Source: Chthoniobacterales bacterium
Lineage (GTDB): Bacteria; Verrucomicrobiota; Verrucomicrobiia; Chthoniobacterales; JAFAMB01
Length of the DNA stretch: 64,000 nucleotides
Assembly: GCA_035938215.1 (NCBI GenBank)
Contig: DASZHC010000054.1
Location: forward strand, 830-64,829
Direction: 5' to 3'
Under the pieces are notes generated by a model. The model did not search any database and had not been told where the DNA came from. It saw only the letters and a program-made list of their open reading frames with translations. A program made the position numbers and the translations under genes. Shown here in pieces: positions 19,019 to 42,330 of the stretch (position 1 is the first letter of the stretch; the number at the start of each line of letters is the position of its first letter).

Positions 19019-20500
19019 TTACGCCCAGGCTTTCGCGCGTTCCAATGCTTTGTTCCAACCTGCGCGAAGTTTCTGGCGCTCGTCGCTTCCGATTTTTGGT
19101 TCGAACGTGCGGTCCGAGCCCCATTGCGACTCGATTTCGCCGATCGAATTGTAGAAGCCGACGGCTAGGCCTGCCAGATATGCTGCGCCCATCGCCGTTG
19201 TCTCCGGGTTCGACGCACGCACCACCGGCACTCCGAGCAGGTCCGCCTGGAATTGCATGAGCAGGTTGTTACCGCACGCGCCGCCGTCGACTCGGAGTTC
19301 CGCCAATTTTATTGACGAGTCAGACTCCATCGCGGTCAGAATATCGGCAACTTGGTAGGCAATGCCCTCCAGAGCGGCTCGCGCGATGTGCGCCGCGGTG
19401 CTGCCGCGGGTGAGCCCGACAATTGCGCCTCTCGCATAGGCATCCCAGTGTGGAGCGCCAAGGCCGACAAAGGCTGGAACCAGATACACACCGCCGTTGT
19501 CTTGCACACTGGCTGCGAGACTTTCAACCTCAGGGGATGTTCGGATGATGCCGAGACCATCACGCAACCACTGTACGACGGCCCCTGCAATGAAGACGCT
19601 TCCTTCAAGCGCGTATTCGGTTATGTTATTCCTTCGCGACGCAATGGTCGTGAGGAGATTGTTTTTTGACGGGACGGCTTCGGTGCCGGTGTTCATCAGC
19701 ATAAAGCAGCCGGTACCGTAAGTATTTTTAGACATTCCGGGTTTACTGCACATCTGACCGAACAGAGCGGCTTGCTGATCACCGGCGATCCCTGCGATGG
19801 GAATTCCGGCTAACGTGCCGGCTGACGACACTCCGTAGACTTCACTTGAGCTCTTCGCGGCAGGCAGCACGGAGCGTGGTACGTGCAAAGCGTTAAGGAG
19901 CTCGTCATCCCAGTCCCGGGTGTGAATATTGAAAAGCATGGTTCGCGAGGCATTGGTTTCATCCGTCACGTGAACTTTGCCATCTGTCAGTTTCCAAATA
20001 AGCCAGGAGTCGACTGTTCCAAATGCGAGCTCGCCGCGCTCCGCTCTTTCCCGGACCCCCGGAACGTTGTCCAGGAGCCAGCGCACCTTTGTTCCAGAAA
20101 AGTAGGCGTCGATCACCAGTCCCGTTTTGCCCTGGATAAGCGGCAGCAGGCCATCGGCACGCATCTGATCGCAGATCGGAGCGGTTCTGCGGTCCTGCCA
20201 CACGATCGCATGGAAGACGGGTTCGCCCGTTTTTCGATCCCACAGAAGCGTGGTCTCACGCTGGTTTGTTATTCCGACGGCGGCGATGTCCGCCAAGCTG
20301 ATATTCGCGCGACCGATTGCGTCCGCTGCGACAGCAATCTGGCTCGCCCAGATTTCATTCGGATCGTGTTCGACCCAGCCAGGCTGGGGAAAGAACTGGG
20401 TAAATTCCATTTGTGCGACGGAGACAACTTTACCGGAGTGATCGATCACTAGAGCTCGAGAGCTCGTGGTACCCTGATCCAGAGTAATTAGGTATTTCAT
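19019..20500 (-). CDS. glpK: glycerol kinase (copy 1)
   Basis: Start at [15 protein letters not shown] (CAT at 20498-20500). Full-length FGGY kinase with canonical DQGTTSSR. Confidence 0.95.
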
Positions 20501-21393: not shown

Positions 21394-22100
21394 TTGTTAA
21401 AAGAGCGTTGGCTTTTGCTAAGCCCGGGAGCTGGTCGGGGTCGATTTGGTGCATTGAAAGAGGATCGCGCCAATGTCAGTCCAGATGAACATCTGCTAAT
21501 TCTATTGGCTGTAGAAAGAGGATTTACGAGTGCGAAGAACGGTGGGAGCAAATGGCAATCAGTATTAGAAATTGTCAACGGCGATCAAGCGCAACGATTG
21601 ACTTGTGGCAATTAATGGCCAACCCATCTGTTGGGATTCTGCGATTTCCGCTCTCATGGATCGGAGTTGGGGCTTTCGATGGAGTGCTGATCCAAATTAC
21701 GCTCTATTTTCTGTAATCCTTATAGACATCTGGATCTATACCCCATTTGTCGTCATCCTGGCGCTCGCCGGTCTGCGTTCCTTGCCGAAATCTCCGTACG
21801 AAGCTGCGCTGATTGATGCGGTTCGGCGTGGTTCGTTTTTCGTAACCTGACGCTGCCGATGCTAGCCCCGGTTTTGTTAATCGCGTTGATTTTCCGGTTG
21901 ATGACTTCCCGCAGGAATTCGCAATTATCTTTGCTTCAACACGCGGCGGTCCAGGAGACCTTACATTAAATGTTGCGATCGCGGCTTATAACCAGGCATT
22001 TCCTTTTTGTAATCTGGCCGGATCGATCCCCATGCTTCTTTTCCTCTGGGCGTTTATTTACGCCGTTTGTTTCATTCTGATCGGCTACTGGAGGAAGGCT
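21394..22100 (+). pseudogene. decayed MalF/UgpA-type ABC sugar permease (several frameshifts)
   Basis: Permease-like segments in three frames: ...DIWIYTPFVVILALAGLRSLPKSPYEAALID..., then LTLPMLAPVLLIALIF, then ...TRGGPGDLTLNVAIAAYNQAF...LLFLWAFIYAVCFILIGYWRK. Confidence 0.55.
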
Positions 22101-22313
22101 CAAATCCGAACCGTTGCCTCTTGCGCGGCGCCAAGGTTCCCTGCCAGAGGTGGTCGACATGTTTGTGGGATTTGCCTCCAGAACGATCAAAAAAAACGAG
22201 CAAAACCTCGCAGAGTGAGCGAAACTAATATTCAATTGGTTTCTTTCAGCGGCCGCCCGTCCGCAGCGTTGTTGGCCCCCCAAAAAAAATCTAACCTTGA
22301 GAGGCTTCACCCG

Positions 22314-23417
22314 ATGGCTTACTTGGAACTGACTAAGATCGAGAAACATTACGACTCGTTTCACGCTCTGAAGAGCATCGATCTTCAGGTTGAAAGAGAG
22401 GAATTCGTCGTCTTTGTCGGACCATCGGGATGCGGAAAGAGTACCCTTCTTCGCTCCATCTGCGGTCTCGAAACGGTCAGTAGCGGCAGAATCGTGCTCG
22501 ATGGCCAGGACATCACCGATATCCATCCATCGAAGCGAAACTTGGCTATGGTGTTCCAAAACTACGCGTTGTTCCCGCACTTAAGCGTCTTTGATAACAT
22601 TGCCTTTGGGCTGCAGTTGCACGGTGTTTCGAAAGACGATATCCGAAAGCGCGTTGAGCGTGCTGCGGCGCTCTTGCACCTGGAGAAAATGCTGGACCGC
22701 AAACCCAAGCAGCTCTCAGGGGGTCAGCGTCAACGGGTCGCCATCGGGCGCTGTATTGTGAAGGCACCAAAATTATTCCTTTTCGATGAGCCGCTTTCCA
22801 ACCTGGATGCCAAGCTTCGAGTACGGATGCGAGTAGAGCTGCTCAACCTGCACTATGAAACTCGTAACACGGTGGTCTACGTTACTCACGACCAAGTGGA
22901 AGCAATGACCATGGCGGATAAAATAGTGGTCTTGCAGGACGGTCGCATCGAACAGTTCGGAAGGCCGATGCTCCTGTACGAACATCCAGTGAACAAGTTT
23001 GTGGCTGGTTTCATTGGATCGCCGCAGATGAACTTTCTCGCCGGCAAGGCCGGTGCTTCGAACCCGAAAGGGATTTCCTGCGCAGTTGACGGGATTGGTA
23101 CGCTTACACTGCCACTGCAGGCGGATGGTTGGAAACTAAACGAATCGATAACGGTCGGCGTGCGACCCGAACATATCGAGCTGGAAGACGGAGTATCGTG
23201 CACTTCGGTTAAGGGAATCGTGAACATTGTAGAGAATCTCGGCGGCGAGACTTACCTGCATGTCGAAATCGCTCCCGGAGCACCACTAATCATGGTCAAG
23301 CTGCACGGTTCACACGGTCCGAACCGTGGAGAACGCGTTACACTCTATCTGCCCGCGGACAGGATTTACCTTTTTGGCGATGAGGGGAACGCTATCCCGG
23401 CGAAGCCGCTAAAATAG
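22314..23417 (+). CDS. ABC sugar-transporter ATP-binding protein (UgpC/MalK/MsmX type)
   Basis: Start at MAYLELTKIEKHY (ATG 22314). GPSGCGKST, LSGGQRQRV, LFLFDEPLS. The upstream part of ORF 22032.. is the permease remnant. Confidence 0.9.
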   Translation: MAYLELTKIEKHYDSFHALKSIDLQVEREEFVVFVGPSGCGKSTLLRSICGLETVSSGRIVLDGQDITDIHPSKRNLAMVFQNYALFPHLSVFDNIAFGLQLHGVSKDDIRKRVERAAALLHLEKMLDRKPKQLSGGQRQRVAIGRCIVKAPKLFLFDEPLSNLDAKLRVRMRVELLNLHYETRNTVVYVTHDQVEAMTMADKIVVLQDGRIEQFGRPMLLYEHPVNKFVAGFIGSPQMNFLAGKAGASNPKGISCAVDGIGTLTLPLQADGWKLNESITVGVRPEHIELEDGVSCTSVKGIVNIVENLGGETYLHVEIAPGAPLIMVKLHGSHGPNRGERVTLYLPADRIYLFGDEGNAIPAKPLK

Positions 23418-23523
23418 GGCTTCGGGGCATACTCGTCGTAACGAACTTCGGTCGTTAGAGAGTCCCATCCATGAACAGCGGTGGCTGACATCCTGCAAAT
23501 CTCTCCCCAAATTTACATGGTTT

Positions 23524-25038
23524 ATGGCTACGATCTGCGTTGATGTCGGTACCTCGGTCATCAAGACGGTCGCTTTCAACGACCGCGGCACCGAGATCGC
23601 CCTTGCCCGCCAGGAAACGGAAGTGCTGCGTCCCGCACCCGGCTTTTCCGAGCAAGACATGTATTCTGTGTGGGACGCGGCAGCCTTCACGGTCCGCACT
23701 GTTGTAAGCCAACTGTCCGATCCGGTACGCCTTATCTCGCTGACGGCTCAGGGGGATGGTTGCTGGCTGGTGGATGCCGACGGTCACCCTACCGGCCCTG
23801 CAATCCTGTGGAACGACGCGCGGTCCGCCACGATTGTTGATCGCTGGCGAGGGGCAGGCGTATTGAAGGAAGCCTTTCGCTGCAACGGCTCGCAGGCCTT
23901 CGCCGGCCTTCCCAACGCCCTCTTCACCTGGCTCAAGCAACATGATCCCGATCGCATGGAGCGTTCTTACAAGTCGCTCTGCTGCAACGGCTGGATTTTC
24001 TACAATCTGACCGGCCGGATGGCCATCGATGAGTCAGACGCATCCGTGCCATTTTTCGACGTGCGCGAGCGGCGCTATTCCCGCGAACTCCTTCAACTCT
24101 ACGACCTGGAGTGGGCCGAGCGGTTGTTGCCGGATGTACTTGCCAATGACCAGCGCATCGGCGAGCTGCGTTCGGCGGCGGCTGCCGAATTGGGTCTGCC
24201 GGCAGGGCTGCCTGTGGTCATGTCGCCTTATGATGTTGCCTCAACGGCCATCGGTGTCGGCGCGGTCAGCGACGGGCAGGCGTGCAGCATTCTCGGTACG
24301 ACGCTTTGTACTGAGCTTGTTATGGACCACGTCAACCTGGAAGGGGAACCGTCCGGGTTGACTATCCCATTCGGTCCGCCGGGGCTGTACCTGCGCGCCT
24401 TCCCAACCCTGGCCGGGGGCGAGGTTATCCATTGGGCGGTAAGACAGCTTGGTCTCAGCGAGCCATCGGACCTTAGTCAACTGGCTTCCAAAGTCGCGCC
24501 GGGTGCGGGCGGCCTTTGCCTTCTGCCGTACTTTTCTCCCGCCGGCGAGCGCGTACCGTTCCTGAACACTGGCGCCCGCGGCTCGCTTTTCGGGTTGTCG
24601 TTCGAACACGGCCGGGAGCATATCGCCCGAGCGGTGCTCGAAGGATTGTCTCTGGTCATCCGCGATTGTTTGCAGGCATCGCAAGAGGTGCCCTTTCCCC
24701 TACACGTTTGCGGCCTGTGCGGTGGTGGTGCGAAGAGCGAAGTATGGTGTCAACTGATTGCTGACGTCACAGGCACGCCAACCTTTCGCACCGTGGACCA
24801 GGAAGTCGGTGCGAAGGGGGCTTTCATTGCGGGATTGGTCGCCGTGGGCAAAGAGGCGGATTTTTCCAGCGCAACCAAGGATTATCTGCAAATCCGGGAC
24901 ATGTTCGAGCCGCACAAAGAATCGCACGCCCGTTACGATGAGTTGTTCGAGCAATTCCTCGCCATCCGCGAGAACACGTTGCCCATCTGGAAACAGATGG
25001 CGGATGGCGGCGCTCGATTGAGTCCGGCGGCAGCCTGA
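23524..25038 (+). CDS. FGGY-family carbohydrate kinase (substrate unknown)
   Basis: 504 aa. ICVDVGTSVIKTVAF N-terminus, C-terminal GGGAKSEVWCQLIADV. Confidence 0.85.
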   Translation: MATICVDVGTSVIKTVAFNDRGTEIALARQETEVLRPAPGFSEQDMYSVWDAAAFTVRTVVSQLSDPVRLISLTAQGDGCWLVDADGHPTGPAILWNDARSATIVDRWRGAGVLKEAFRCNGSQAFAGLPNALFTWLKQHDPDRMERSYKSLCCNGWIFYNLTGRMAIDESDASVPFFDVRERRYSRELLQLYDLEWAERLLPDVLANDQRIGELRSAAAAELGLPAGLPVVMSPYDVASTAIGVGAVSDGQACSILGTTLCTELVMDHVNLEGEPSGLTIPFGPPGLYLRAFPTLAGGEVIHWAVRQLGLSEPSDLSQLASKVAPGAGGLCLLPYFSPAGERVPFLNTGARGSLFGLSFEHGREHIARAVLEGLSLVIRDCLQASQEVPFPLHVCGLCGGGAKSEVWCQLIADVTGTPTFRTVDQEVGAKGAFIAGLVAVGKEADFSSATKDYLQIRDMFEPHKESHARYDELFEQFLAIRENTLPIWKQMADGGARLSPAAA

Positions 25039-25061
25039 TTTACTTGCAAGGCCCTTTCTTT

Positions 25062-26552
25062 ATGGCATTAAAGCAATCCTCGGACGCTGCCTGGCTCGGA
25101 CTGGATCTCGGCACTCAAAGTGTGCGCGCCATGGTTGTTTCCGGTACCGGCGAGACCTTGGCCGCCGGTTCGCACAAACTGACCAGCCGCCGCAACGGAC
25201 CCCGGCACGAACAGGACCCCGAGGAATGGTGGCGCGCCATCTCAGCCGCTTCCCGAGTGGCTCTTGCTGCGCTGCCTGCCGGCTTGACCATCTATGGTGT
25301 CGCAGTGGATGGCACGTCGGGCACGATCCTGCTTGTTGATGGCGGCGGCCGGCCGTTGACGCCGGGGTTGATGTACGATGACACCCGGGCGTTTGAGGAA
25401 ACCAAACGCGCCAACGAGGCCGGCGCGGCGGTTTGGGCCACGCTGGGCTACAACCGGATGCAGGCGCCTTGGGGTTTGCCGAAATTGCTCTGGCTGTTGG
25501 GTCAACATCGTGGCTTGGCCGCCGGGACGCGCCTGGCGCACCAGACCGATTTTATCAACCGTCGGCTAGTCGGCAGCGAGGTCGCCACGGACACGAGCAA
25601 CGCGCTGAAAACCGGCGTGGACCTGATCAACGAACGCTGGCCGCGCGAGGTGTTCGCCGCGCTTGGAGTGCCCGGCGAAATTCTGCCAGCCGTGGTGCGT
25701 GCCGGGACCGCTCTAGGGGTGGTGAGCGCGGAGGCGGCTACGCAGACGGGCATCCCGCAAGGCACGCCGGTCATCGCAGGCATGACGGACGGTTGTGCGG
25801 CACAGATGGGTGCGGGGGCATTGAGCGTCGGAAGCTGGAACTCCGTGCTGGGCACCACGCTCGTCCTCAAAGGGGTGACGCCCGATCTGATCAAGGACCC
25901 GGCTGGGGTCGTGTATTCACACCGTTCGCCCGATGGCAACTGGCTACCCGGCGGCGCTTCGAGCGCTGGCGCGGGAGTGATCTCCAAGCGTTTCCCCGAG
26001 CGCGATCTGGAAGCGCTCGGGACACAGGCTGCCGAGAGGGAGCCGGCAAGCGTGGTCACCTACCCTCTGCACGGACGCGGTGAACGTTTCCCCTTCATCG
26101 CGCCGGAAGCGGAGGGTTTTACCCTGGGCCGACCCGCCGACGAGATCGACCAGTATGCCGCGCTGCTCCAAGGCGTGGCGTTCATCGAGCGTCTCTGTTT
26201 TGACTACCTGGACATGCTCGGCGCGCCGGTCGGCGGCCCATTCGTGCTCACCGGCGGCGGGGCGAAGAGCCGGTACTGGTGCCAGTTGCGGGCGGACGTG
26301 CTCGGCAGCCCGGTTACCCTGCCGGAGAACGCCGAGGCGGCTTTAGGCATGGCGGTTCTGGCGGCGGCGGCCGGGCGCAAGGTGGCTGACGTTGCCCGCG
26401 CGATGGTGCGCATTCGCGAGGTGATCGACCCGCGCCCGGACCACGCCGGACGCTTCCGCGAGTCGTACCTGCGGCTGGTCGATGAACTCGCCCGTCGGGG
26501 CTGGGAGACGCCAGCCGTCGCGCAACACGCCCACCGGAGGGCCGCCGTGTGA
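25062..26552 (+). CDS. FGGY-family carbohydrate kinase (second, divergent; substrate unknown)
   Basis: LGLDLGTQSVRAMVV N-terminus, TGGGAKSRYWCQLRADV. ATG at 25062 preferred over the TTG at 25044. Confidence 0.85.
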   Translation: MALKQSSDAAWLGLDLGTQSVRAMVVSGTGETLAAGSHKLTSRRNGPRHEQDPEEWWRAISAASRVALAALPAGLTIYGVAVDGTSGTILLVDGGGRPLTPGLMYDDTRAFEETKRANEAGAAVWATLGYNRMQAPWGLPKLLWLLGQHRGLAAGTRLAHQTDFINRRLVGSEVATDTSNALKTGVDLINERWPREVFAALGVPGEILPAVVRAGTALGVVSAEAATQTGIPQGTPVIAGMTDGCAAQMGAGALSVGSWNSVLGTTLVLKGVTPDLIKDPAGVVYSHRSPDGNWLPGGASSAGAGVISKRFPERDLEALGTQAAEREPASVVTYPLHGRGERFPFIAPEAEGFTLGRPADEIDQYAALLQGVAFIERLCFDYLDMLGAPVGGPFVLTGGGAKSRYWCQLRADVLGSPVTLPENAEAALGMAVLAAAAGRKVADVARAMVRIREVIDPRPDHAGRFRESYLRLVDELARRGWETPAVAQHAHRRAAV

Positions 26553-27175
26553 CACACCTCTTCCTCGTTCGCCACGGGGCGACCGTCTGGCACGCTGAGA
26601 ACCGCTATGCCGGCACTTCCGACGTGGCATTGGACCCGGGTGGCTATGCGCAGGCCGAGCGACTTGCCGCATGGGCATCCGAGGCCGGGCTGGCGGCGAT
26701 CTGGTGCTCTCCGCTGAATCGCTCACGCGAAACGGCTGCCCCGGCCGCGCGCGCGGCGGGCCTTGAGCCGCGGATTGACGAACGCCTGCGCGAGATCGAC
26801 TTCGGCCAGATCGAGGGCAAGACCATGGCCGAGGCGGAGCAGCTTTTTCCCGAGGAAATCCGGCGCTTCAAAACCGATCCCGCGACTTATCCGATGCCCG
26901 GCGGCGAAGACCCGCATAAGGCTGCTTGCCGCGGGGTGTCAGCTCTGCGCGACATCGCCGCCGCGCACCCGCACGGGCGCGTGCTGGTCGTCGCGCATAA
27001 CACGCTCATCCGCCTGGCGCTCTGCTCCCTGTTTAGTATTCCGCTGGCGCGTTACCGGACGGTTTTTCCGGGTGTCCGCAATGGTGCGCTGACCGAAATC
27101 GGATTTGAGGATGAAAACGCCGCTCTCCTGCAATACAACTCTCCGCTGGGCACGGCCGGCGGACCACAGACCTAA
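26549..27175 (+). CDS. histidine phosphatase (phosphoglycerate-mutase-like) family protein
   Basis: 208 aa. LVRHGATVWH catalytic RHG motif. GTG start overlaps the upstream stop (GTGA). Confidence 0.85.
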   Translation: MTHLFLVRHGATVWHAENRYAGTSDVALDPGGYAQAERLAAWASEAGLAAIWCSPLNRSRETAAPAARAAGLEPRIDERLREIDFGQIEGKTMAEAEQLFPEEIRRFKTDPATYPMPGGEDPHKAACRGVSALRDIAAAHPHGRVLVVAHNTLIRLALCSLFSIPLARYRTVFPGVRNGALTEIGFEDENAALLQYNSPLGTAGGPQT

Positions 27176-27192
27176 CCTCCCAAACAAACATA

Positions 27193-28242
27193 ATGAACAC
27201 ACGCATCCTTGTCGCCGGCGATCACTTCATCCTGCCTTCCATCTTTGCCGACGCGATTCGCGCCGAAGTGAAGACCGCCATTGAGTTCCGCGAGTATCAA
27301 TCCCCTTGGCCGGGCGTGCCGTTTGGCGAGATCGGTGAGGTCACGGAAGCGTCTGGCTCGGAGGACGAGGTCATCCAGGCTCTTCAAGGGGTGAGCATCT
27401 ATGTGGCAAACCATGCTCCTCTCACGAAGAAAGTTCTCGAAGGCGCGCCCGACCTGAAACTTGCCGTCATTGCTCGCGGAGGTCCGACCAACGCTAACGT
27501 CAAGGCTGCTACCCAGCACGGCGTGCTCGTCTGCAACGCCCCCGGCCGCAACGCCACGGCCACCGCCGAGCACACCATGAGCCTGATCCTCGCGGTTCTG
27601 CGCCGCATTCCCGAAACGCATGCTGCGCTCGCGCTAGGCGAATGGCGCGGCGATTACTACGAATACGACAAGTGCGGGCTGGAGCTGGAAGATTCCACCG
27701 CCGGGTTGATCGGCTACGGCGCGATCGGCACCCGCGTGGCCCGGATGCTCCGCGGCTTCGGGTGTCACGTGCTCGTCTACGATCCCTATGTGAAGCCTGA
27801 GACCTTGGGAGACCTGGCGCAAAATGTCGAACTTAACGAACTGCTCTCCCGCTCACGCATCGTTTCCTTGCACGCGCGGGCCACAACCGAAACCCAGGGC
27901 ATGATCGGCGCGAAACAGCTCGCCGTGATGTCTGCCGGGTCGGTGCTTATCAACTGCGCGCGCGGCACGCTCGTCGATTACAACGCAGTTTGCGACGCGC
28001 TCGACAACGGCCACCTCTGGGGTGCCGGCTTCGACGTGTTTCCCGAAGAGCCGATCCCGGCGGACTCGCGCCTGCTGACAACTCCGCACATCGTGATGAC
28101 GCCTCACGTTGCGGGTGCCAGCAAGCAGACCGCCGAGAGAGCCGCGCAGATCGCCGCCGGTGAGGTTCGCCGCTTCCTTCACGGTGAACCGCTCGAACAC
28201 TGCATCAACCCGGAAGCCGCCGCCGGCAAATCTGCCCGGTAA
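27193..28242 (+). CDS. D-isomer-specific 2-hydroxyacid dehydrogenase (PGDH-like), NAD-binding
   Basis: 349 aa. GLIGYGAIGTRVARML Rossmann motif. NCARG...D and TPHVAG patterns. Confidence 0.85.
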   Translation: MNTRILVAGDHFILPSIFADAIRAEVKTAIEFREYQSPWPGVPFGEIGEVTEASGSEDEVIQALQGVSIYVANHAPLTKKVLEGAPDLKLAVIARGGPTNANVKAATQHGVLVCNAPGRNATATAEHTMSLILAVLRRIPETHAALALGEWRGDYYEYDKCGLELEDSTAGLIGYGAIGTRVARMLRGFGCHVLVYDPYVKPETLGDLAQNVELNELLSRSRIVSLHARATTETQGMIGAKQLAVMSAGSVLINCARGTLVDYNAVCDALDNGHLWGAGFDVFPEEPIPADSRLLTTPHIVMTPHVAGASKQTAERAAQIAAGEVRRFLHGEPLEHCINPEAAAGKSAR

Positions 28243-28275
28243 GCACCCGTTCTTCAGCAGATCATTATCCTTCCG

Positions 28276-29121
28276 CTACTTAATCGCTCCGGCCGTGAGA
28301 CCGCGGACCAGTTGACGCGAGACGATCATGCTAAATATGATCACCGGCATGGCCACCAAGGTGCCCGTGGCCATAATCTGGCCCCAAGGCAGTTCATAGC
28401 CGCTCATGAAGCTTGTGGCGACGACCGGCGCGGTCTTGGCCTCGGTTCTTGTCAGTATCAGGGCGTAGAGCAACTCGTTCCAGGAGAAGATAAAACTGAA
28501 GATTGCCGAGACAGCGAGTGCGGGTGTGGCCAGCGGCAGCGCAATCTTTAAAAATATCGCAAACGAGTTGTAGCCTTCGAGTGTCGCTGCCTCGTCCAAC
28601 TCTTTTGGAATATTGCGGAACTGGTCAGCACAGATCCAGACCACGATTGGCACGTTGAACGTGAGGTAAATGAGGATAAGTGCCCACGTCGTATCCAGGA
28701 GTCTGAAGTTGCGGGCGATGAGAAAAAACGGGAGCGCCACAACGATCGGACTGAGCATTCGGTTCGAGATAAACCAAAACCAGATGTCCCGCTTCCCTTT
28801 AAACTCGAACCGGGCAATCGCGTAGGCGGCCGGCGTTCCGAGCACCAGCGAAATCAGGACTGTCACCAAAGCGACAAACAACGAGTTCTGCAGGCTCTTT
28901 AGAATGTCGAACTTGCTAAAGGCGTTCACATAGTTTTCCAACGTCGGTTGGAAAAGGAATTGAGGGGTCGATGCGAGGATCGCCGGTTGCTGCTTGAAGG
29001 ACGCCGTGACCATCCAGTAAAACGGGAAAACGCAAACCAATATTACCAAAAGCAGGGCCACGAAGTGGAGTATGTCGTCAAGTTGCAGGCCCTTTCTTCG
29101 CCTAGATTCGCTTGTTTTCAT
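28276..29121 (-). CDS. ABC sugar-transporter permease (UgpE/MalG type)
   Basis: 281 aa, multi-TM. EAA-loop region DEAATLEGYNSFAIFLKIALP. Confidence 0.85.
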   Translation of the reverse strand: MKTSESRRRKGLQLDDILHFVALLLVILVCVFPFYWMVTASFKQQPAILASTPQFLFQPTLENYVNAFSKFDILKSLQNSLFVALVTVLISLVLGTPAAYAIARFEFKGKRDIWFWFISNRMLSPIVVALPFFLIARNFRLLDTTWALILIYLTFNVPIVVWICADQFRNIPKELDEAATLEGYNSFAIFLKIALPLATPALAVSAIFSFIFSWNELLYALILTRTEAKTAPVVATSFMSGYELPWGQIMATGTLVAMPVIIFSMIVSRQLVRGLTAGAIK

Positions 29122-29126
29122 GGTCT

Positions 29127-30050
29127 TCAGATCTCCTTGTAAACGTACTTCACATAAAGGCGGGATAGAATGGTAGCAATGATCAACAACACCACAGCCT
29201 GTGCCGAAGCCATCCCCTGGTCGAAAACGCGGAAGCCGATACGTTGTATATACACGCTTATGAGTTCAGTAGCCGAACCGGGTCCCCCGCGAGTCATCGT
29301 ATAAACGACGTCAAACAGCTTAAGAATATCCGCAGTTCGTAGAATCAGGATTACGGTTATGCCGGGCAGCATGAACGGGAGTTGTACCTTCCAGAGTATA
29401 TGCCACCATTTTTCCGTTTCGAGGCGAGCCGCTTCTTCAATTTCGAGCGGGACCATCGTCAGGCTCGAAAACAAGATCAGGGCGCAGAACGGGGTCCATT
29501 GCCAGTCTTCCATTATCGAGATGGAAACGAAGGCGAGGTCCGGATCAGCCAGCCAATCAAGCTTATGCGCAAAAATCAGGCTCCAGAAATAGTTTAACAC
29601 CCCAAAGTCCAGATTGAACATGAGCCGGCCCGACAGCCCTACGACAGCGAAGGTGGTGGCCAGAGGAATGACCAGCGCAACTCGACCTATCTTCTTCAAG
29701 AGCTCATTTCCGGGTCTATGCAAAAGCAACGCAATCGCCAGCCCGAGCGCCAACTGAATCGGCAAGTTGACAACGAGGAAAAGCAAGGTTCGACCGAGCG
29801 CTTCCCGGAAGGATTGGTCCGTGAGAAGCGCCAGGTAGTTTCCGAACCAGTTAAAAGGCGCGTCGAAGAGCGGCCAGATCCCCAAAAAACTCCCCTGCGA
29901 ATGGACTTTCGGCAAGATAAACTGGTGCAATGAGTTCCAGACCGCAAAGAGCAGAGGAAAAATCCCCACGAAGAACAATACAATCACCGCCGGGGCAAGG
30001 AAGTACCAGGCCCCGGGAGAGTAGGTTTTCTTTCCTGTATTCGCTTTCAT
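29127..30050 (-). CDS. ABC sugar-transporter permease (UgpA/MalF type)
   Basis: 307 aa, multi-TM. EEAARLETEKWWHILWKVQLP EAA loop. Confidence 0.85.
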   Translation of the reverse strand: MKANTGKKTYSPGAWYFLAPAVIVLFFVGIFPLLFAVWNSLHQFILPKVHSQGSFLGIWPLFDAPFNWFGNYLALLTDQSFREALGRTLLFLVVNLPIQLALGLAIALLLHRPGNELLKKIGRVALVIPLATTFAVVGLSGRLMFNLDFGVLNYFWSLIFAHKLDWLADPDLAFVSISIMEDWQWTPFCALILFSSLTMVPLEIEEAARLETEKWWHILWKVQLPFMLPGITVILILRTADILKLFDVVYTMTRGGPGSATELISVYIQRIGFRVFDQGMASAQAVVLLIIATILSRLYVKYVYKEI

Positions 30051-30193
30051 CCTCGGCGTTGATCTTTGTAGCGTAGCCGGTGAAATCCGACATATGCGGA
30101 GGGAGGCTCGCGAAGCGGCCCGGTTTGGCCCCGCTCACGCGGGGCCACCGTTGAACAGAAAGTTCGGCGCTAGACCGTCGGCGCTCTCGCGTC

Positions 30194-31534
30194 TCATTGT
30201 GCCAACGGCTTCTTACCGTTGTAATAGCCGGCTTTCTTGAGTGTGTCCTCCACCAGTTTGCAAATCTGCGCCGATGCCTGCTTTACAGTCGATTGTCCAT
30301 CCATCATCTTGGTGCCCCACTCGGCGATGATGTCTGAGAGCTGGGGCCATTCTGCGAACCGGGGGCGAAACTCTGGCACACCCTGCTGCCAGGATTCGAC
30401 CATTGGAGCAATGAATGGGTATTTTGCCACCAGTTCTTTGTCTTGGTAGGTCGATTGGCGCCCGCTGACACCGCCGTTTTCCACATACTCCTTCGCCTTG
30501 GCTTTGGATGTTACCCACTGGATGAATAGCCAGGCAGCTCCTTTTTTCTTATCATCGACCTGAGTCGTCACAGCGAGCGAGAATCCGCCGAGCGCGGGTT
30601 TACGGCCGTCCGGACCCTTCGGTTCGGGTGCAATCCCGAGCGAATTGACGATTTTCGAAGTCTTCGGGTCGACCAGTGTCTGATAAAACGCTGACCACTC
30701 GGTGATCATCGCAACCTGACCTTGGGCGAGGGCATTGACTGCCTCGCTGTGGTCGAAGTCCACGATGCCCGGCGGCATGTATTTCATCAGCCTTAAACGG
30801 AACTCGAGTCCCGCTTGCGTTTTCGGATCCGAGAGGTTGCACTTGAAATTAGAATCGAGCAGAGAGCCGCCCCAAGGCCAGATGAAACGCATGAAGCTAT
30901 CGCAAGATTGCGTCTCGCCGCGCCGCGACTGCAATGCGAACGCGTACTTGCCGTCCTTTGTGAGCTTCGGAGCGTAGTCGTTAATAAGTTGGTCCCACGT
31001 TTCTGGCGGCTTATCGAAGCCGGCCGCTTTCAGCATGTCTTTGTTGTAATAGAGGAGACCTGAATAGTTATCGAAAGGTAATCCGTAAGTTTTACCGTTC
31101 CAGGTGCCAAACGCGTTCAATAACAGCGGGAAGAAGTCTTTTAGATCCAGGTCGGGATCAACCAGGTTCGGAAACTTCTTTTGCAGATCGTCGATCGGGA
31201 CAATCCAGCCGGATTCGGCGTATTCACCGATCCAGACAAGGTCCACGAGCGCAATCGCTAGGTCGCCCTGTGCGCTAAAGTCCAGGACTTCTTTTTCACG
31301 ACTGTTCTCGTACGGAACGATCTCATAGGACACTTTGATGCCAGTCTTCTGCTCGAATTCCGGCAACATCTTGATCGCCGCCCTGTAACCCGGACGATCG
31401 AGGAATATCACCTTGATCTCTGTTCCTTTGTAATCCTTCGCCGCTTCCTCGAGGGACCAGGCTTGAGCAACGCTCAGGCCGACCGACGAGAAGGCAACTC
31501 CAACACATAACATGCAGAGGAATTTCTTCTTCAT
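30194..31534 (-). CDS. ABC transporter extracellular solute-binding protein (family 1, sugar type)
   Basis: 446 aa. Signal peptide MKKKFLCMLCVGVAFSSVGLSVAQA. First gene of the SBP-permease-permease run. Confidence 0.85.
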   Translation of the reverse strand: MKKKFLCMLCVGVAFSSVGLSVAQAWSLEEAAKDYKGTEIKVIFLDRPGYRAAIKMLPEFEQKTGIKVSYEIVPYENSREKEVLDFSAQGDLAIALVDLVWIGEYAESGWIVPIDDLQKKFPNLVDPDLDLKDFFPLLLNAFGTWNGKTYGLPFDNYSGLLYYNKDMLKAAGFDKPPETWDQLINDYAPKLTKDGKYAFALQSRRGETQSCDSFMRFIWPWGGSLLDSNFKCNLSDPKTQAGLEFRLRLMKYMPPGIVDFDHSEAVNALAQGQVAMITEWSAFYQTLVDPKTSKIVNSLGIAPEPKGPDGRKPALGGFSLAVTTQVDDKKKGAAWLFIQWVTSKAKAKEYVENGGVSGRQSTYQDKELVAKYPFIAPMVESWQQGVPEFRPRFAEWPQLSDIIAEWGTKMMDGQSTVKQASAQICKLVEDTLKKAGYYNGKKPLAQ

Positions 31535-31717
31535 AGTAGGGGATATCGATTAATGATCGACGGACTCTAAGACTTTAATATTATCTCTTTCTGGGCAAGT
31601 TAACTAATGGGTTAGCAGACGTAACTATTTGCTTATTGGCAGCAGTCGGCCAATCCGACACGAAACCCGGGGTGGGAATGAGCGCAACGACTGCGTCCTG
31701 TCTGTATCCTGTCAACT

Positions 31718-31762
31718 GAAAATGCACCTGCGTTAGTGAGTTTCGAAATACAGGTGCGTTTT
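31718..31762. terminator. 12-bp inverted repeat with flanking T/A runs (possible bidirectional terminator)
   Basis: GAAAATGCACCTG (31718-31730) pairs with CAGGTGCGTTTT (31751-31762), 11/12. The loop is 20 nt, which is long for a terminator. Confidence 0.3.
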
Positions 31763-31854
31763 AATCCTCACCTTTTTCACCGCCGTTTCGCGATGGTTCA
31801 CGAACGATGTGTCGAACAAGGGCTTCCCGAATTCGCTGTGTTTTGGCTGTCAGG

Positions 31855-32199
31855 TTACCTCCCTTCCGCTGGGGCTGCTGTTGATCCCCGAACATGGAGC
31901 GGGGAATTGATCACATTGCTCGGAGCCTTATTGGCAAAGCGCTCTTTCTCGTTGATCCGCTGAAGCAATAACTCCACCGCCTTCCCGCCAATATTCGGAA
32001 TAACGAACCCGACGGAATGTGTTGTCCGTAGCCGTAGACTTCTCGCGCCGAGGTTCACCCGATAACTCAACGCGGCAATCGCCCGCTCAGCGTTTTGCGC
32101 GGTGCCCGGCGAAACCGGCGCGCTATGTTCGATGTAGTGCGATACAGTGCTCGGTGCGACACCGGCGAGTTTCGCGACGCTTAGGATGGTAGCCTCCAT
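31855..32199 (-). pseudogene. truncated LacI-family regulator (HTH domain only)
   Basis: 114 aa. TILSVAKLAGVAPSTVSHYI...ALSYRVNLGARSLR...SVGFVIPNI is the LacI N-terminus. The roughly 250-aa sugar-binding domain is missing, and I see no LacI-like frames downstream. Confidence 0.6.
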
Positions 32200-32342
32200 G
32201 GAACGTTCAAGGGCGGGGGGAGTAGCTGCAACATCAACTTATAGCGACTCGGTTGAAACGTTTTCAAGAATTATCCGAACCAAATTGTCGAGAGGCTCTC
32301 GTCCCGCGAATTTACCGATGGGGTTCCGATAGCAGGTGGACA

Positions 32343-32809: not shown

Positions 32810-34927
32810 ATGCTTGGCATGGCTTCGGATTTGCAAGCCTCTCCTTCTTCCTTGGCACGGAACTCTCTTATCGAGTACCTGAGCATCCCGCGCGAACTCG
32901 CGTGGGGCTATGTCGGCCTGTTGCTGTTCATGATGGGGGACGGGGTGGAGTCAGGGTACCTGGCTCATTACCTTCACGGCGAGGGGATTTCCCAGGGAAA
33001 AATCGCGTTGATATTCACGGTTTATGGCGCGTTCGCGACAATGGGGGGTCGCTATTCGGGCGCTTTGGCCGATGTGTGGGGACCGCGTTTGGTGATGTGG
33101 ATCGGTCTTCTGACCTGGACCGCATTCCAGATCGTCTTTTTGGGCTTCTCGCTCCCGACGGGTAATTTCCCTGCCCTGCTCGTGAGCTACGGGCTCCGGG
33201 GCTTTGGCTACCCGCTGTTTGCCTACGGCTTCCTGGTTTTGATTACGAACGTTACTCCGTCGAAGCGGCTCGGATCCGCCGTTGGATGGTTTTGGTTTGC
33301 TTTCAGCGCAGGACTGCCGACCTTGGGTGCTTTTGTTGCTAGTCTGCTCATTCCTCACGTCGGCGAGTACGTGACCTTCTGGTGTTCGCTTGCGATGGTG
33401 ATTGCCGGCGGTGTTGTCGCTCTTTCGGGACTGCCAAGAAGAGCCGGCCTATCTGCGCCGGGCGCGCCTCAAAAGAAGACGCGCGATTCACTTTTCTCCA
33501 GCTTTTCGATTGCCTGGAAAAAGCCAAAGACGGCGATTGGCTGTGTCGTGCGCATGATCAACACCGCCCCGCAATTCGGTTTCTTGGTATTCTTGCCAAC
33601 TTTTTTCACAACCGATGTCGGATTGCATCTTAGCCAATGGCTGCAGTTGCTGAGCTATATGTTCCTGAGCAACATGGTTGCGAGCCTGTTGTCGGGAATC
33701 GTTGGGGACAAACTCGGTTGGCGGCATACGGTTGCCTATGTTGGCGGGATGGGTTGCACGATCACGACGCTTCTGCTTTACTACGTGCCAGTTGCACACC
33801 GGGGAAATTTCGTGTTGGCCGTCGTGGTTGCCGTTCTTTACGGGGCAACCCTTGCTGGCTACGTCCCGCTCACCGCCATCATGCCACTCTTGGCGCCGGA
33901 CAACAAAGGTGCGGCCATCTCGATGCTAAACCTCGGGGCGGGGGCAAGCGCTCTGCTTGGTCCGGCGATCGTTGGCGTCTTCATTGGGCCGCTTGGGGTT
34001 GAAGGGGTGATGTGGATCTTCGCCGGGCTTTATGGGCTCAGTGCGTTGCTGGCTCTGTTCCTGACGTTGCCGGACGAAGTGGAACGCGGGACCCTTGGGT
34101 GGAGTGGCATTGGCGAGGCAGCGTTTGGCGCGTCTGCGGGTCTGCTGGACCATCCCCCGGCGATGGCTGCTCTGGCGGGCCAGCACGACATCGATCTGGT
34201 GCTGTTTGACCTGGGGGGGACAATTTATGACGACTCAACTTACACGAGGGCGTTGCTCCGGGCCGTTCACGAGATTGATCCGAAGGCCCAGGAACAGGAA
34301 TTCTGGGCGGTTTATGATGCCGAACGGATGAAGGCGTCGGGTTCGTTGCGCACTGCCATCGCGAACCATTTTGTTCCTAATCGGGATCGCGAGAGGCTGA
34401 CGACCCTCGCAAAGGTCTACTGGGAATACCCAGCGTCGGCCCTTTATCCGGATGTGAAACCTGCGTTGAAAGCGCTGGCTGACCACTTCAAATTGGGCCT
34501 AGTAGCAAACTCGGGTGAGGCGGCTCTTAAGGCGTTGCGACGGGACGGTATCGAGGACCTTTTTGCCGTCATTGCCCTCGCAGACTTCGTTGGGGTGGAA
34601 AAGCCCGATGAGAGGATCTTCCAATACGCCCTGAAAACCGCCGGCGTTTCGCCGAGCCGCGTGGTGCATGTGGGTAACCGTCTCGAGAGCGACATCCGAC
34701 CGGCTCAGCGATTGGGAATGCGGACCGTGTGGCTGTTGCGCGGCGACGCTCCTCCGGCGCCAACCTTGGACCAATTGGTTGAACCGGATGCCGTGATCAC
34801 TTCGCTCCTGGGTTTGCCGACGGCATTATCAAGGTTAACGGGCGGCAAGGAGCTTAAGTCATCCTCAGCAACTTCTGCGGTTAAGGATCTTTCGGAAGCT
34901 CGTAAGGAGCGCATCAAAGCTTTGTAA
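32810..34927 (+). CDS. MFS transporter fused to a C-terminal HAD-superfamily domain
   Basis: 705 aa. About 440 aa of TM-rich MFS sequence, then IDLVLFDLGGTIYDD ... LGLVANSG ... VEKPDERIF ... HVGNRLESD (HAD motifs I-IV, with non-canonical I and IV). Confidence 0.8.
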   Translation: MLGMASDLQASPSSLARNSLIEYLSIPRELAWGYVGLLLFMMGDGVESGYLAHYLHGEGISQGKIALIFTVYGAFATMGGRYSGALADVWGPRLVMWIGLLTWTAFQIVFLGFSLPTGNFPALLVSYGLRGFGYPLFAYGFLVLITNVTPSKRLGSAVGWFWFAFSAGLPTLGAFVASLLIPHVGEYVTFWCSLAMVIAGGVVALSGLPRRAGLSAPGAPQKKTRDSLFSSFSIAWKKPKTAIGCVVRMINTAPQFGFLVFLPTFFTTDVGLHLSQWLQLLSYMFLSNMVASLLSGIVGDKLGWRHTVAYVGGMGCTITTLLLYYVPVAHRGNFVLAVVVAVLYGATLAGYVPLTAIMPLLAPDNKGAAISMLNLGAGASALLGPAIVGVFIGPLGVEGVMWIFAGLYGLSALLALFLTLPDEVERGTLGWSGIGEAAFGASAGLLDHPPAMAALAGQHDIDLVLFDLGGTIYDDSTYTRALLRAVHEIDPKAQEQEFWAVYDAERMKASGSLRTAIANHFVPNRDRERLTTLAKVYWEYPASALYPDVKPALKALADHFKLGLVANSGEAALKALRRDGIEDLFAVIALADFVGVEKPDERIFQYALKTAGVSPSRVVHVGNRLESDIRPAQRLGMRTVWLLRGDAPPAPTLDQLVEPDAVITSLLGLPTALSRLTGGKELKSSSATSAVKDLSEARKERIKAL

Positions 34928-35020: not shown

Positions 35021-35773
35021 TCAGGTCGCTAGAAATCCACCGTCTATTGGAAGGGCCAATCCATTGAGCATCGCTGCGGCATCGCTCAGCAGGAAGCAAA
35101 CCACCGACGCTATATCCTCACACTCCGCAAATCGGCCCAATGGAATTCGCTGAAGCATCGGTCCCCCTTTTTCAGGATCACTCCACGCCCGTTTCCCCAT
35201 TTCAGTCAATACGACTGTGGGATTTACAGAGTTAACGCGAATGCCATGTTTGCCAAGCTCCACGGCCATCACTTTGGTCAACTGGTCCAGCCCAGCCTTG
35301 GAAGCGCAATAGGCAGCATGTTTTTCGAGTGCCTGAAATGCCGCCATACTGGAAACGTTCACAATTGAACCTCGAATACCGCGCTCAATCATTTGGGCGG
35401 CGATCACCTGTGAAATGATAGCGACCGATCTTAGATTCACCGCCATCGTTAGATCCCATGCCTCAACGGTGGAGGTGAGAAAAGGCTGCAGAATCGCTAT
35501 GCCGGCGTTGTTCACGAGAAGATCAACGTCCCCCGCCGACTCCGCTGCTCGCTTCGCGGACACGGGATCGGCAAGGTCCGCGATGATCGTTTCGCAACCG
35601 ATCTCTTCCTTGAGGCTTCGAAGGTCTTTCTCGGTTCTGCTGAGTGCGATGACTCGCGCATTAAAGCGAGTCAGCATGCCGGCGATTTCTCTGCCAATTC
35701 CCTTTCCGGCACCGGTAACAAGTGCACGTCGATTCTTAAAGTCGATTTGATGAACGATGGGATCGAGTTTCAT
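35021..35773 (-). CDS. short-chain dehydrogenase, L-xylulose reductase / carbonyl reductase (DCXR)-like
   Basis: 250 aa. LVTGAGKGIGR, LLVNNAG, IVNVSS, YCASKAGLD, RVNSVNPTVV, RIPLGRFAE, FLLSD. From memory these are near-identical runs to animal DCXR. Confidence 0.8.
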   Translation of the reverse strand: MKLDPIVHQIDFKNRRALVTGAGKGIGREIAGMLTRFNARVIALSRTEKDLRSLKEEIGCETIIADLADPVSAKRAAESAGDVDLLVNNAGIAILQPFLTSTVEAWDLTMAVNLRSVAIISQVIAAQMIERGIRGSIVNVSSMAAFQALEKHAAYCASKAGLDQLTKVMAVELGKHGIRVNSVNPTVVLTEMGKRAWSDPEKGGPMLQRIPLGRFAECEDIASVVCFLLSDAAAMLNGLALPIDGGFLAT

Positions 35774-37313: not shown

Positions 37314-38261
37314 TCAGTGAAATCCGAGGCTTAGAAGATTGACGACTTTTCCGATGTTTTCCGATGTTACAAGACTTGGGCCGGTGAGAATAAAATCATT
37401 CTGCAGGATCGAGCCGTACCTGATGTAGTTGGCGAGAAATACAATGGGGAGATAACCTTGCAACCATTCCTGTTGGTCAATCGCAAATTCGATTTGCTTC
37501 TTCGCGAGGGCGGCCATGACAGCCGGAGAAATGTCGAATGTGCATAGTTTGATCTGGCCCATTTTTCCGAGCTGAACGATGGTTGCCAAAGCCGGTTCAG
37601 CAGCTGTTGAGCCGAGAGCCATAATCCCGTCGACATTCTGGTTCCTCTGCAAATAGTCGCGAACCAGATTCTGGCATTCTCCGAAATCCATTTTGACCGC
37701 GAGAACCTGAACGTGATGAAACGGACCTTCGAACCCTGCCCGGAAGCCTTTAATTCGCTGTTCAAGCCCAAAATTTCCAACCTCCTGGTTTAAAATGATG
37801 GCTTCCTTGACTCCCATTGCTTTCATCTTTTGACCCGCTTTGCGACCTGCGGCTCCCTCATCTTGACCGATGTACATGAGACACCCGAGTTGGCGGGATA
37901 CCTCCAACCCGGAGTTAATCGAGATCACAGGAATTTTTGCAGCGACCGCAGCCTTTATGGATCTTGATAATGCGGCAGCGTCGGGAATCGACACGACGAG
38001 GGCATCGGGTTTGGATGCGACGGCTTCATCGATTAGTTGCGCCATTGCCTGCACATCAAATTTCTCAGGAGCACGATATTCAACGTCGCTGCCCGTTTCT
38101 TCGGTGGCAATTTCTACGCCGTTTCTGACAATCAACCAAAATGAGTCCGCGGCCTGGCCATGGGTCACCACGATGATCCTGGGTTTTGTTAGCGCGTGGG
38201 AGACGAGAGGAGTGAGGAGAGCCACGGCCAATGCCAGCCACAACTTGAATCTCGGATTCAT
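37314..38261 (-). CDS. periplasmic sugar-binding protein (RbsB-like, PBP type 1); no cognate permease or ATPase adjacent
   Basis: Start at [16 protein letters not shown] (signal peptide). The ATG overlaps the glpK2 stop (TGATG at 38259-38263). Confidence 0.8.
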   Translation of the reverse strand: MNPRFKLWLALAVALLTPLVSHALTKPRIIVVTHGQAADSFWLIVRNGVEIATEETGSDVEYRAPEKFDVQAMAQLIDEAVASKPDALVVSIPDAAALSRSIKAAVAAKIPVISINSGLEVSRQLGCLMYIGQDEGAAGRKAGQKMKAMGVKEAIILNQEVGNFGLEQRIKGFRAGFEGPFHHVQVLAVKMDFGECQNLVRDYLQRNQNVDGIMALGSTAAEPALATIVQLGKMGQIKLCTFDISPAVMAALAKKQIEFAIDQQEWLQGYLPIVFLANYIRYGSILQNDFILTGPSLVTSENIGKVVNLLSLGFH

Positions 38262-42252: not shown

Positions 42253-42330
42253 TCGATAACGGATGCTATGCGCGCTCCAGGTCGCAAGCGACCGGGAACG
42301 CTTCGGTTAGTTGATTCTACTTTGATCCTA

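Follow-up and report, generated by a model that had tools for sequence, protein, structure and literature searches.

A conserved four-gene operon of two FGGY kinases, a histidine phosphatase and a 2-hydroxyacid dehydrogenase family enzyme in a Chthoniobacterales genome, with a possible role in polyol utilization

The rbt and dal operons of Klebsiella combine two FGGY-family pentulokinases (for D-ribulose and D-xylulose) with permeases of the RbtT/DalT family, whose characterized members carry ribitol and D-arabitol, and their end products are D-ribulose 5-phosphate and D-xylulose 5-phosphate. The free polyols are oxidized there by dehydrogenases of the short-chain (SDR) and medium-chain (MDR) types, and no phosphatase is involved. 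A kinase-first order has its precedent in EryA of Sinorhizobium meliloti, which serves erythritol, adonitol and L-arabitol (PMC3599248). Here, a four-gene cassette (23524-28242, 4719 bp) is described from a metagenome-assembled genome (MAG) of the Chthoniobacterales (Verrucomicrobiota); the window, meaning the whole stretch of DNA that was analyzed, is 64 kb long. The cassette encodes two FGGY kinases (FGGY1 and FGGY2), a histidine phosphatase (HisPhos) and an enzyme of the D-2-hydroxyacid dehydrogenase family (DH), together termed the quartet. It is tentatively proposed, with somewhat less than even confidence in the whole, that the quartet is an operon which would convert a small neutral polyol, with a pentitol as the best fit, to D-ribulose 5-phosphate or D-xylulose 5-phosphate by a kinase-first route, that it is built of a core and an accessory gene pair, and that it was acquired from a high-G+C source by an ancestor of the present host.

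Gene families were called with Pfam domains, with NCBIfam models and their curated equivalog cut-offs, and with the nearest PDB structures. The four genes are:

23524..25038, plus strand: FGGY kinase 1 (FGGY1), 504 amino acids, FGGY_N and FGGY_C domains, XylB-like and under every equivalog cut-off
25062..26552, plus strand: FGGY kinase 2 (FGGY2), 496 amino acids, FGGY_N and FGGY_C domains, of the SePSK/AtXK-1 (putative D-ribulokinase) type
26549..27175, plus strand: histidine phosphatase of branch 1 (HisPhos), 208 amino acids, His_Phos_1 domain (187.6 bits), of phosphatase size class
27193..28242, plus strand: D-2-hydroxyacid dehydrogenase family enzyme (DH), like D-3-phosphoglycerate dehydrogenase (PGDH), predicted NAD type, 349 amino acids, 2-Hacid_dh and 2-Hacid_dh_C domains

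These assignments agree with an earlier note on this DNA, made from the letters, which had named the same families. Its description of the genes as tightly packed holds for the GTGA overlap of FGGY2 and HisPhos (26549-26552) and for the 17-bp gap before DH, but the gap between FGGY1 and FGGY2 is 23 bp rather than about 6 bp. The most likely start of FGGY2 is the ATG at 25062, since gene callers use that codon and homologues align from there.

None of the quartet proteins reaches any curated NCBIfam equivalog cut-off. The top match of FGGY1 was XylB (TIGR01312, 279.8 bits), below the 380.25 bits that mark a xylulokinase; its third-best match was the FGGY-type gluconokinase (182 bits) and its top PDB match was E. 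coli xylulokinase (2itm). FGGY2 scored 93.3 bits against NF003154 (cut-off 428) and 80.7 bits against TIGR01315 (cut-off 408.7), below both thresholds for a ribulokinase or pentulose kinase, and its top PDB match was SePSK (5htn, 177 bits), followed by AtXK-1 (5htr). In both kinases the catalytic Asp is kept, along with the DxGT and GGGA motifs. HisPhos belongs to its superfamily, with an intact RHG motif and second catalytic His (AHN), and its nearest solved structures are PspA (4ij5) and PhoE (1h2e); it fell below the cut-offs for both PspA (98.7 bits, cut-off 350) and GpmB (72.5 bits, cut-off 261). A cofactor-dependent phosphoglycerate mutase, for which a length of about 250 amino acids with a C-terminal tail is also expected, is unlikely given the 208 amino acids and the nearest relatives. 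The top NCBIfam match of DH was PGDH (TIGR01327, 243.6 bits), under the 454-bit cut-off for SerA, and its top PDB matches were 5tx7 and PGDH of Mycobacterium tuberculosis (1ygy). The Arg257-Glu286-His305 triad and Asp197, which follows the GxGxxG motif, do not vary in the dehydrogenase alignment; Asp197 indicates a predicted NAD specificity, which fits a catabolic role. A serine-pathway reading (SerA with PspA) was rejected, as the scores are far under the cut-offs and none of the roughly 80 loci contains an aminotransferase. No fusion of HisPhos to a kinase or to DH turned up in the 150 best representatives at 50% identity; the long matches among them are explained by tandem duplication or by fusion to a cyclase.

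With the dehydrogenase alignment as query, a scan over single genomes of each species returned at least 572 confirmed relatives, mostly from Actinomycetota, and the counts of loci and gene orders given here are drawn from the best 80 of these. About 70 of these 80 species-level loci, spread over three phyla, have the genes as FGGY1-FGGY2-HisPhos-DH, and departures from this order are mostly truncations or contig ends. Four of the loci belong to Verrucomicrobiota (80–91% identity) and two to Bryobacteraceae of the Acidobacteriota (63–65%), with the rest coming from many genera of Actinomycetota (58–65%). A further 19 metagenome contigs carry an identical locus. A tblastn search of plasmids recovered the four genes side by side, in unchanged order, from Streptomyces and Nonomuraea (54–63% identity); a DNA search with the locus returned nothing from E. 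coli genomes and only short, distant matches from plasmids. In Streptomyces sp. KN37 the quartet follows genes for a DeoR regulator and a transporter of the major facilitator superfamily (MFS). The 4-nt overlap of FGGY2 and HisPhos also recurs in Streptomyces (L007) and in two Verrucomicrobia (L009 and L096). The four genes form one operon, which reproduces a widespread and self-contained module of probably catabolic function. No published description of an FGGY kinase, histidine phosphatase and 2-hydroxyacid dehydrogenase in combination, or of a polyol, pentitol or tetritol role for it, was found, and the quartet is not mentioned in the 2011 survey of the FGGY family. A 2026 paper on L-threonate 3-dehydrogenase concerns another cluster, one that pairs an SDR with a DUF1537 kinase. 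No characterized pathway that matches the quartet was found in the literature.

Within the module, FGGY1 and DH look like a core pair, with FGGY2 and HisPhos as an accessory pair lost together twice, a division suggested by these joint losses, by a split set in Streptomyces and by clusters of Alphaproteobacteria. In the closest GTDB relative among those listed (L015, DH 91% identical), DH follows directly on FGGY1, and FGGY2 and HisPhos are absent. In Microtetraspora (L062) a deletion took the end of FGGY2 together with HisPhos, leaving FGGY1 and DH. Streptomyces NBC_01727 has a second, divergent set of paralogues that is split into FGGY1-DH and HisPhos-DeoR-FGGY2. Lastly, in Shinella (L013), Gemmobacter (L014) and Sinorhizobium fredii, a SorC-type regulator and a CUT1 ATP-binding cassette (ABC) importer with two ATPases accompany an FGGY kinase, a DH orthologue (42–44%) and a class II aldolase:

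L013 7445-10718 and L014 7431-13241: alphaproteobacterial FGGY-DH-aldolase cluster with a 42–44% DH orthologue

The aldolase is nearest to L-fuculose-phosphate (FucA) and ribulose-1-phosphate aldolases and not to the epimerase or decarboxylase branches. The core pair would thus be followed either by HisPhos and FGGY2 or by an aldolase of the ketose-1-phosphate type. No published function was found for this alphaproteobacterial cluster; in Gemmobacter, a true GlpD gene and another gene of an aldolase family are also part of it. A lone 70% homologue of FGGY2 was found in the Korobacteraceae MAGs L011 and L012 (10001-15662), convergent with genes for PRK, CbbX and the large and small subunits of form-I RuBisCO, which hints weakly that this kinase subfamily is connected with ribulose metabolism.

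The genes around the quartet bear on its possible substrate. In the window they are:

21680..21965, plus strand: decayed ABC permease, two out-of-register pieces with 31–33% identity to permease 1 (tblastn) and a remnant of the EAA loop
22215..23417, plus strand: MalK/UgpC-type ABC ATPase (UgpC subfamily, 442 bits; ABC_tran, OB_MalK and TOBE_2 domains), directly upstream of the quartet and co-directional with it
28276..31534, minus strand: CUT1 ABC importer, convergent with the quartet (two BPD_transp_1 domains and SBP_bac_1)
28276-29121, minus strand: permease of the CUT1 importer
29127-30050, minus strand: permease of the CUT1 importer
30194-31534, minus strand: solute-binding protein of the CUT1 importer
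31855..32199, minus strand: remnant of a LacI-family regulator, 114 amino acids, from which an internal in-frame deletion has removed the effector-binding core
32810..34927, plus strand: polyol permease of the RbtT/DalT/CsbX family with a C-terminal haloacid dehalogenase (HAD)-like domain (TIGR00897, 504.6 bits, cut-off 375)
35021..35773, minus strand: SDR of the GolD/DthD or L-xylulose-reductase type (GolD/DthD 233 bits; names from JGI), possibly linked

The polyol permease is a predicted fifth, co-travelling component of the module, as 26 loci carry an orthologue (51–58%) just upstream of the quartet and the same permease-HAD fusion has this position in Pseudonocardia (L035, 4234-6219). In the window the ABC genes stand between it and the quartet. 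Its C-terminal domain matches the Pfam families Hydrolase and HAD_2; motif I reads DLGGT and lacks the second Asp, the general acid, of the expected DxDx(T/V), so that a predicted phosphatase activity is uncertain. The HAD-like domain of this carrier is cytoplasmic.

Transporter and regulator differ between genomes: across the wider set, the module is usually accompanied by an MFS permease of the polyol family or by an ABC importer, and by a repressor of sugar-phosphate type. About 36 of the best 80 loci have a CUT2 ABC importer directly upstream of the quartet together with a SorC-type regulator, and the CUT2 binding proteins of Actinomycetota have the D-xylose-binding protein XylF as their nearest relative. 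A closed-looking verrucomicrobial contig of 3.0 Mb carries LacI and a CUT2 importer beside the quartet, while the lineage of the window has a CUT1 importer there. The CUT1 genes of the window are of normal G+C content but have a third-position G+C (GC3) of 0.65–0.71. Among solved structures, their binding protein comes closest to 5IAI (189 bits), in which ribitol is present (PMC8468352). In the relative L095, a potassium-channel gene lies between the DH and permease genes. The LacI remnant consists of residues 1-69 (helix-turn-helix, 90% identity) joined to residues 292-338 (85%) of the 338-residue LacI protein of L095; with the effector-binding core gone, the locus may be deregulated in its host. 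The UgpC-type ATPase holds the same position in L095 and L096. The decayed permease between glpF and the ATPase gene, where JGI calls a 64-residue fragment with a weak BPD_transp_1 match, may be a relic of an older transporter operon, perhaps the former one of the ATPase. Scans for promoters and terminators gave results close to chance and carry no weight here.

The RbtT/DalT-type permease, the ribitol-holding relative of the binding protein, the XylF-like CUT2 proteins and the relatives of the kinases together suggest a neutral C5 polyol or pentulose as the substrate. In the favored scheme, an imported polyol (ribitol, D-arabitol and xylitol being the candidate pentitols) would be phosphorylated by FGGY1, and DH would then oxidize the carbon beside the phosphate, in the manner of PGDH, to give a ketose 1-phosphate. 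HisPhos would release the free ketose, which FGGY2, as a D-ribulokinase-like enzyme, would re-phosphorylate at C5, so delivering D-ribulose 5-phosphate or D-xylulose 5-phosphate to the pentose phosphate pathway. In the alphaproteobacterial variant, cleavage by the FucA-like aldolase would be the alternative fate of the ketose 1-phosphate. A phosphorylate-oxidize-dephosphorylate route for a polyol or sugar acid had been suggested in the earlier note, and for a polyol it stays plausible, with indirect support from the transporters and from the division of the module into gene pairs.

Several points weigh against this scheme. We know of no enzyme of the 2-hydroxyacid dehydrogenase family that oxidizes a polyol or a polyol phosphate, and the catalytic Arg of that family normally binds a carboxylate. 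The nearest characterized relatives of both kinases act on ketoses and not on polyols. The route would cost two ATP compared with one for the classical route, and the loss of FGGY2 and HisPhos in two lineages means that they are dispensable, which makes an obligatory step doubtful. The ATPase activity of SePSK is stimulated by D-ribulose and its true substrate is unsettled; the evidence for it as a D-ribulokinase is weak, as it consists only of this stimulation of ATP hydrolysis (PMC4880283).

The reading that survives best beside it is a dehydrogenase-first pentitol route, which is possible though on balance doubtful. Here DH would be a 2-dehydrogenase of free polyols, FGGY1 would take D-xylulose (from D-arabitol or xylitol) and FGGY2 D-ribulose (from ribitol), and HisPhos would serve in safety or repair by removing pentitol phosphates that arise as by-products of the kinases, for which sixA of the Corynebacterium glutamicum arabitol regulon may be comparable. 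The nearest characterized relatives of both kinases are indeed pentulokinases, and the loss of FGGY2 and HisPhos with retention of FGGY1 and DH reads naturally as the loss of one substrate branch. The make-up of gene families parallels the Klebsiella rbt and dal operons. It also parallels the C. glutamicum arabitol regulon as outlined in PMC6685057 (rbtT, xylB, a dehydrogenase, sixA and a DeoR-type regulator), and ribitol and arabitols are side substrates of FGGY enzymes of the D-ribulokinase type (PMC13576159). However, oxidation of a neutral polyol is without precedent in the DH family, the closest relatives of which act on phosphorylated acids, and the tight coupling of HisPhos and FGGY2, conserved across phyla, is left without a reason. 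Whichever order applies, the reaction of DH would be a novelty within its family. In its strongest form the kinase-first reading would be an undescribed "phosphate-swap" pentitol route, with DH as the first polyol-phosphate dehydrogenase of its family and with HisPhos and the SePSK-type kinase shifting the phosphate to C5; this fuller claim is a step more doubtful than the dehydrogenase-first route.

The base composition of the cassette sets it apart from its surroundings. Its G+C content is 0.640, compared with a mean of 0.538 (standard deviation 0.009, maximum 0.561) for the other non-overlapping 4719-bp windows; here and below, its status as an outlier is judged within the 64-kb window, which the genomic comparison covers. 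Successive 1-kb windows over 24–28 kb gave 0.61, 0.65, 0.69 and 0.62, against approximately 0.53–0.55 elsewhere in the window, and a fine profile has abrupt steps at about 23.5 kb and 28.25 kb, which are gene borders. The tetranucleotide distance of the cassette (0.369) is the highest in the window (median 0.135). Taken singly, the quartet genes have a G+C content of 0.61–0.67 and a GC3 of 0.70–0.77, with first and second codon positions also raised, whereas the 40 other open reading frames (ORFs) of the window average 0.537 (standard deviation 0.019) and 0.588 (standard deviation 0.041), respectively. The anomaly lies where the earlier note had placed it, with sliding G+C, GC3 and tetranucleotide measures all outlying, and its six hand counts on 60-nt lines proved exact (63.3, 65.0 and 75.0% inside; 48.3, 55.0 and 58.3% outside). 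The four long shadow ORFs that it had named in the cassette exist, but such ORFs are not unique to it, others being found at 19883-20452, 39011-40147 and 43435-44226.

The excess has two sources. The quartet has an observed G+C content of 0.644, and recoding it with the codon usage of the other window genes still gives 0.590, compared with 0.541 for host genes; about half of the excess is therefore due to amino-acid composition and the other half is synonymous. Ala, Gly, Arg and Pro together make up 32–41% of the residues of the quartet proteins, compared with 29%. In L095 and L096 (87–91% identical, with the layout of the window) the quartet has a GC3 of 0.66–0.77, as in the window, whereas in the L009 copy (82–87% identical, host G+C content about 0.54) it is 0.56–0.62, the same as in neighboring genes. 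The high GC3 is thus not intrinsic to the quartet genes. The synonymous half would represent codon choice not yet adjusted to the host, and is consistent with acquisition by an ancestor in the Chthoniobacterales lineage from a high-G+C source.

Horizontal spread of the quartet is supported, although it is neither recent nor peculiar to this genome. An acquisition from a high-G+C donor had been suggested, in favor of which are the mostly actinobacterial and elsewhere patchy distribution, the gene order kept across phyla at 55–65% identity, and the contexts of the quartet, which differ among Verrucomicrobia. Against it, the closest relatives among those listed, by which the suggestion was to be judged, belong to the same lineage as the flanks (Chthoniobacterales/Verrucomicrobiota, 80–91% amino-acid identity), and signs of mobility are absent. 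No tRNA was found in the window; no integrase or mobility gene was detected, all ORFs from 21 to 36 kb being metabolic, transport or regulatory genes; and the only repeats were short chance ones, with none flanking the cassette. Of the features of a classical genomic island, therefore, the compositional deviation is present (relative to the 64 kb), while tRNA, integrase or transposase, and direct repeats are not. Two relatives, L095 and L096 (87–91%), share the entire layout of the locus and its G+C contrast with the window, which argues for an old, shared acquisition and not a recent insertion. The block from the ATPase through the quartet and the ABC genes to LacI (22171-32275) has 88–91% DNA identity to L095 and the adjoining glpD-glpK-glpF genes approximately 76%, a contrast which suggests exchange of a block of about 10 kb among related Chthoniobacterales.

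At a deeper level, the identity of the window proteins to those of Actinomycetota (55–63%) is as high as the lowest within Actinomycetota (54%), which argues for transfer between phyla. In a neighbor-joining tree of the concatenated quartet proteins (71 taxa, 1472 columns), the Verrucomicrobia clade, the Acidobacteria clade and their union each had 100% bootstrap support. From the distribution, which is centered on Actinomycetota, we infer that the module type is ultimately actinobacterial. It counts against this part of the proposal that the tree gives no firm placement of the joint Verrucomicrobia and Acidobacteria clade among the actinobacterial groups, so that the direction of transfer is read from the distribution only. 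The immediate donor may have been a high-G+C verrucomicrobium, comparable with the MAGs L017 and L018, in which the quartets have 70–72% G+C and 75–82% identity.

It is unlikely that the anomaly is instead an intrinsic, selected property of the genes (arising from codon preference and the make-up of the proteins) and that the quartet is native to Verrucomicrobia. Such an origin would suit the verrucomicrobial affinity of the closest listed relatives, the lack of mobility signatures and the half of the excess that is due to amino-acid composition, and the quartet has a higher G+C content than its flanks in every host examined, Actinomycetota included (mean +3.4 points, n=73). It does not account for the synonymous half (GC3 0.70–0.77 vs. 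0.59), which is missing in the 82%-identical L009 copy, and it sits poorly with the patchy occurrence in Verrucomicrobia and Acidobacteriota next to a broad one in Actinomycetota, with cross-phylum identity as high as that within Actinomycetota, and with the 88–91% DNA identity of the ATPase-to-LacI block to L095 beside 76% for the adjacent glp genes. Two cautions follow from the locus: protein composition alone can yield half of a striking G+C anomaly, and an "island" can be old and common to a whole lineage.

Further metabolic genes lie farther out in the window, and a pentitol or tetritol theme had been seen in an SDR, a split transketolase and a dihydroxyacetone kinase. The SDR is linked to the quartet elsewhere, as a 74% orthologue lies directly downstream of it in Chthoniobacterales L017, the only adjacent case among the loci examined (in the window it is 7 kb away). 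The split transketolase (358-2156) and DhaKLM (39751-44370) are beside the quartet in no other genome examined, and a link of these to the quartet was rejected. The transketolase is encoded on the plus strand by two overlapping genes, one for the N-terminal and one for the C-terminal half. At 39751-42252 (minus strand) an 833-residue protein joins a DhaM phosphoryl-donor domain (1-126) to a full enzyme I (264-827) of the phosphotransferase system (PTS); its gene shares an operon with those for DhaL and DhaK and adjoins a second glycerol kinase gene (38261-39754). A GlpD-like flavoprotein (17422-19002, minus strand) scored 294 bits, under the 360-bit cut-off for glycerol-3-phosphate dehydrogenase, while the adjacent GlpK is far above its own; it may be a divergent GlpD, and its substrate is not certain.

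Less likely still than a native origin is a tetritol (erythritol or threitol) as the substrate, with FGGY1 acting like EryA and DH in place of the GlpD-like EryB. Some members of the 90% cluster of FGGY1 are labeled "erythritol kinase" by JGI, which is the one hint that the kinase may take the polyol itself, the linked SDR resembles D-threitol dehydrogenase (GolD/DthD, 233 bits), a GlpD-like gene adjoins the alphaproteobacterial variant in Gemmobacter, and glpK-glpD stand beside the module in the window and in Bryobacteraceae L019. However, the GlpD-like gene of the window is part of a normal glpF-glpK-glpD set, the relatives of the binding proteins and permease point to C5 compounds, and the isomerases through which erythrose 4-phosphate would be reached (EryC, TpiB/EryH and RpiB/EryI types) are not conserved beside the quartet. 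Among the conserved neighbors in the best 80 loci, no EryB-like GlpD, EryC or TpiB/RpiB-type isomerase was found, nor was any other conserved enzyme or oxidoreductase beside the quartet.

A sugar acid or 2-keto sugar acid, used through a gluconokinase-like FGGY enzyme and a 2-keto-(phospho)aldonate reductase as with Pseudomonas KguK/KguD, is the least probable substrate: it is the best fit to the DH family, whose well-studied members all act on 2-hydroxy or 2-keto acids and whose Arg-Glu-His triad is intact here, and the 182-bit gluconokinase match of FGGY1 agrees with it, but every associated transporter type (polyol-permease MFS, CUT1 and CUT2 ABC) is known for neutral sugars or polyols, and the conserved neighbors include no dehydratase, decarboxylase or aldolase of the kinds that mark acid-sugar routes.

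The quartet is probably a widespread variant of the polyol-utilization operon for which no published function was found. If the proposed polyol route is true, it adds a pathway to the prediction of carbon sources for abundant soil bacteria, the 2-hydroxyacid dehydrogenase family gains a new class of substrate, and the SePSK/XK-1 kinase subfamily, also present in cyanobacteria and plant plastids, gains a biological role and physiological substrate.

When set against Klebsiella rbt/dal, the window has the RbtT/DalT-type permease, but no SDR or MDR enzyme in the operon, where the sole oxidoreductase is PGDH-like, and neither kinase reaches an equivalog cut-off. The arabitol regulon of C. glutamicum (atlR, xylB, rbtT, mtlD and sixA; Laslo et al., 2012, via PMC6685057) is alike in having an RbtT permease, an FGGY pentulokinase, one dehydrogenase, a gene of the histidine phosphatase superfamily and a DeoR-type repressor, and Streptomyces copies of the quartet likewise come with DeoR and an MFS permease. 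As far as it is described in that source, the regulon differs in its mannitol-dehydrogenase-type enzyme, its single kinase and its SixA-type phosphatase, a subfamily not matched by HisPhos. The PTS-dependent route of Firmicutes, with arabitol-phosphate dehydrogenase, is similar in that a pentitol phosphate is oxidized, directly to pentulose 5-phosphate, and differs in its PTS phosphorylation, its MDR-type dehydrogenase and its lack of a phosphatase or FGGY kinase (PMC6685057). SePSK of Synechococcus and AtXK-1 of Arabidopsis plastids, the nearest solved relatives of FGGY2, share with it the catalytic Asp/Thr/Asp, but they are single genes with an unsettled physiological substrate (PMC4880283). 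In the erythritol pathway of Brucella and Sinorhizobium, an FGGY kinase (EryA) acts first and is followed by oxidation beside the phosphate (EryB) to a ketose 1-phosphate (PMC3599248; PMC12780249), the order favored here for the quartet; unlike the quartet, that pathway uses the GlpD-like flavoenzyme EryB and continues with isomerases rather than with a phosphatase and a second kinase. In the alphaproteobacterial SorC/CUT1/FGGY/DH/aldolase cluster the DH orthologue directly follows the FGGY kinase, as the core pair would require, and a FucA-like class II aldolase stands in place of FGGY2 and HisPhos.

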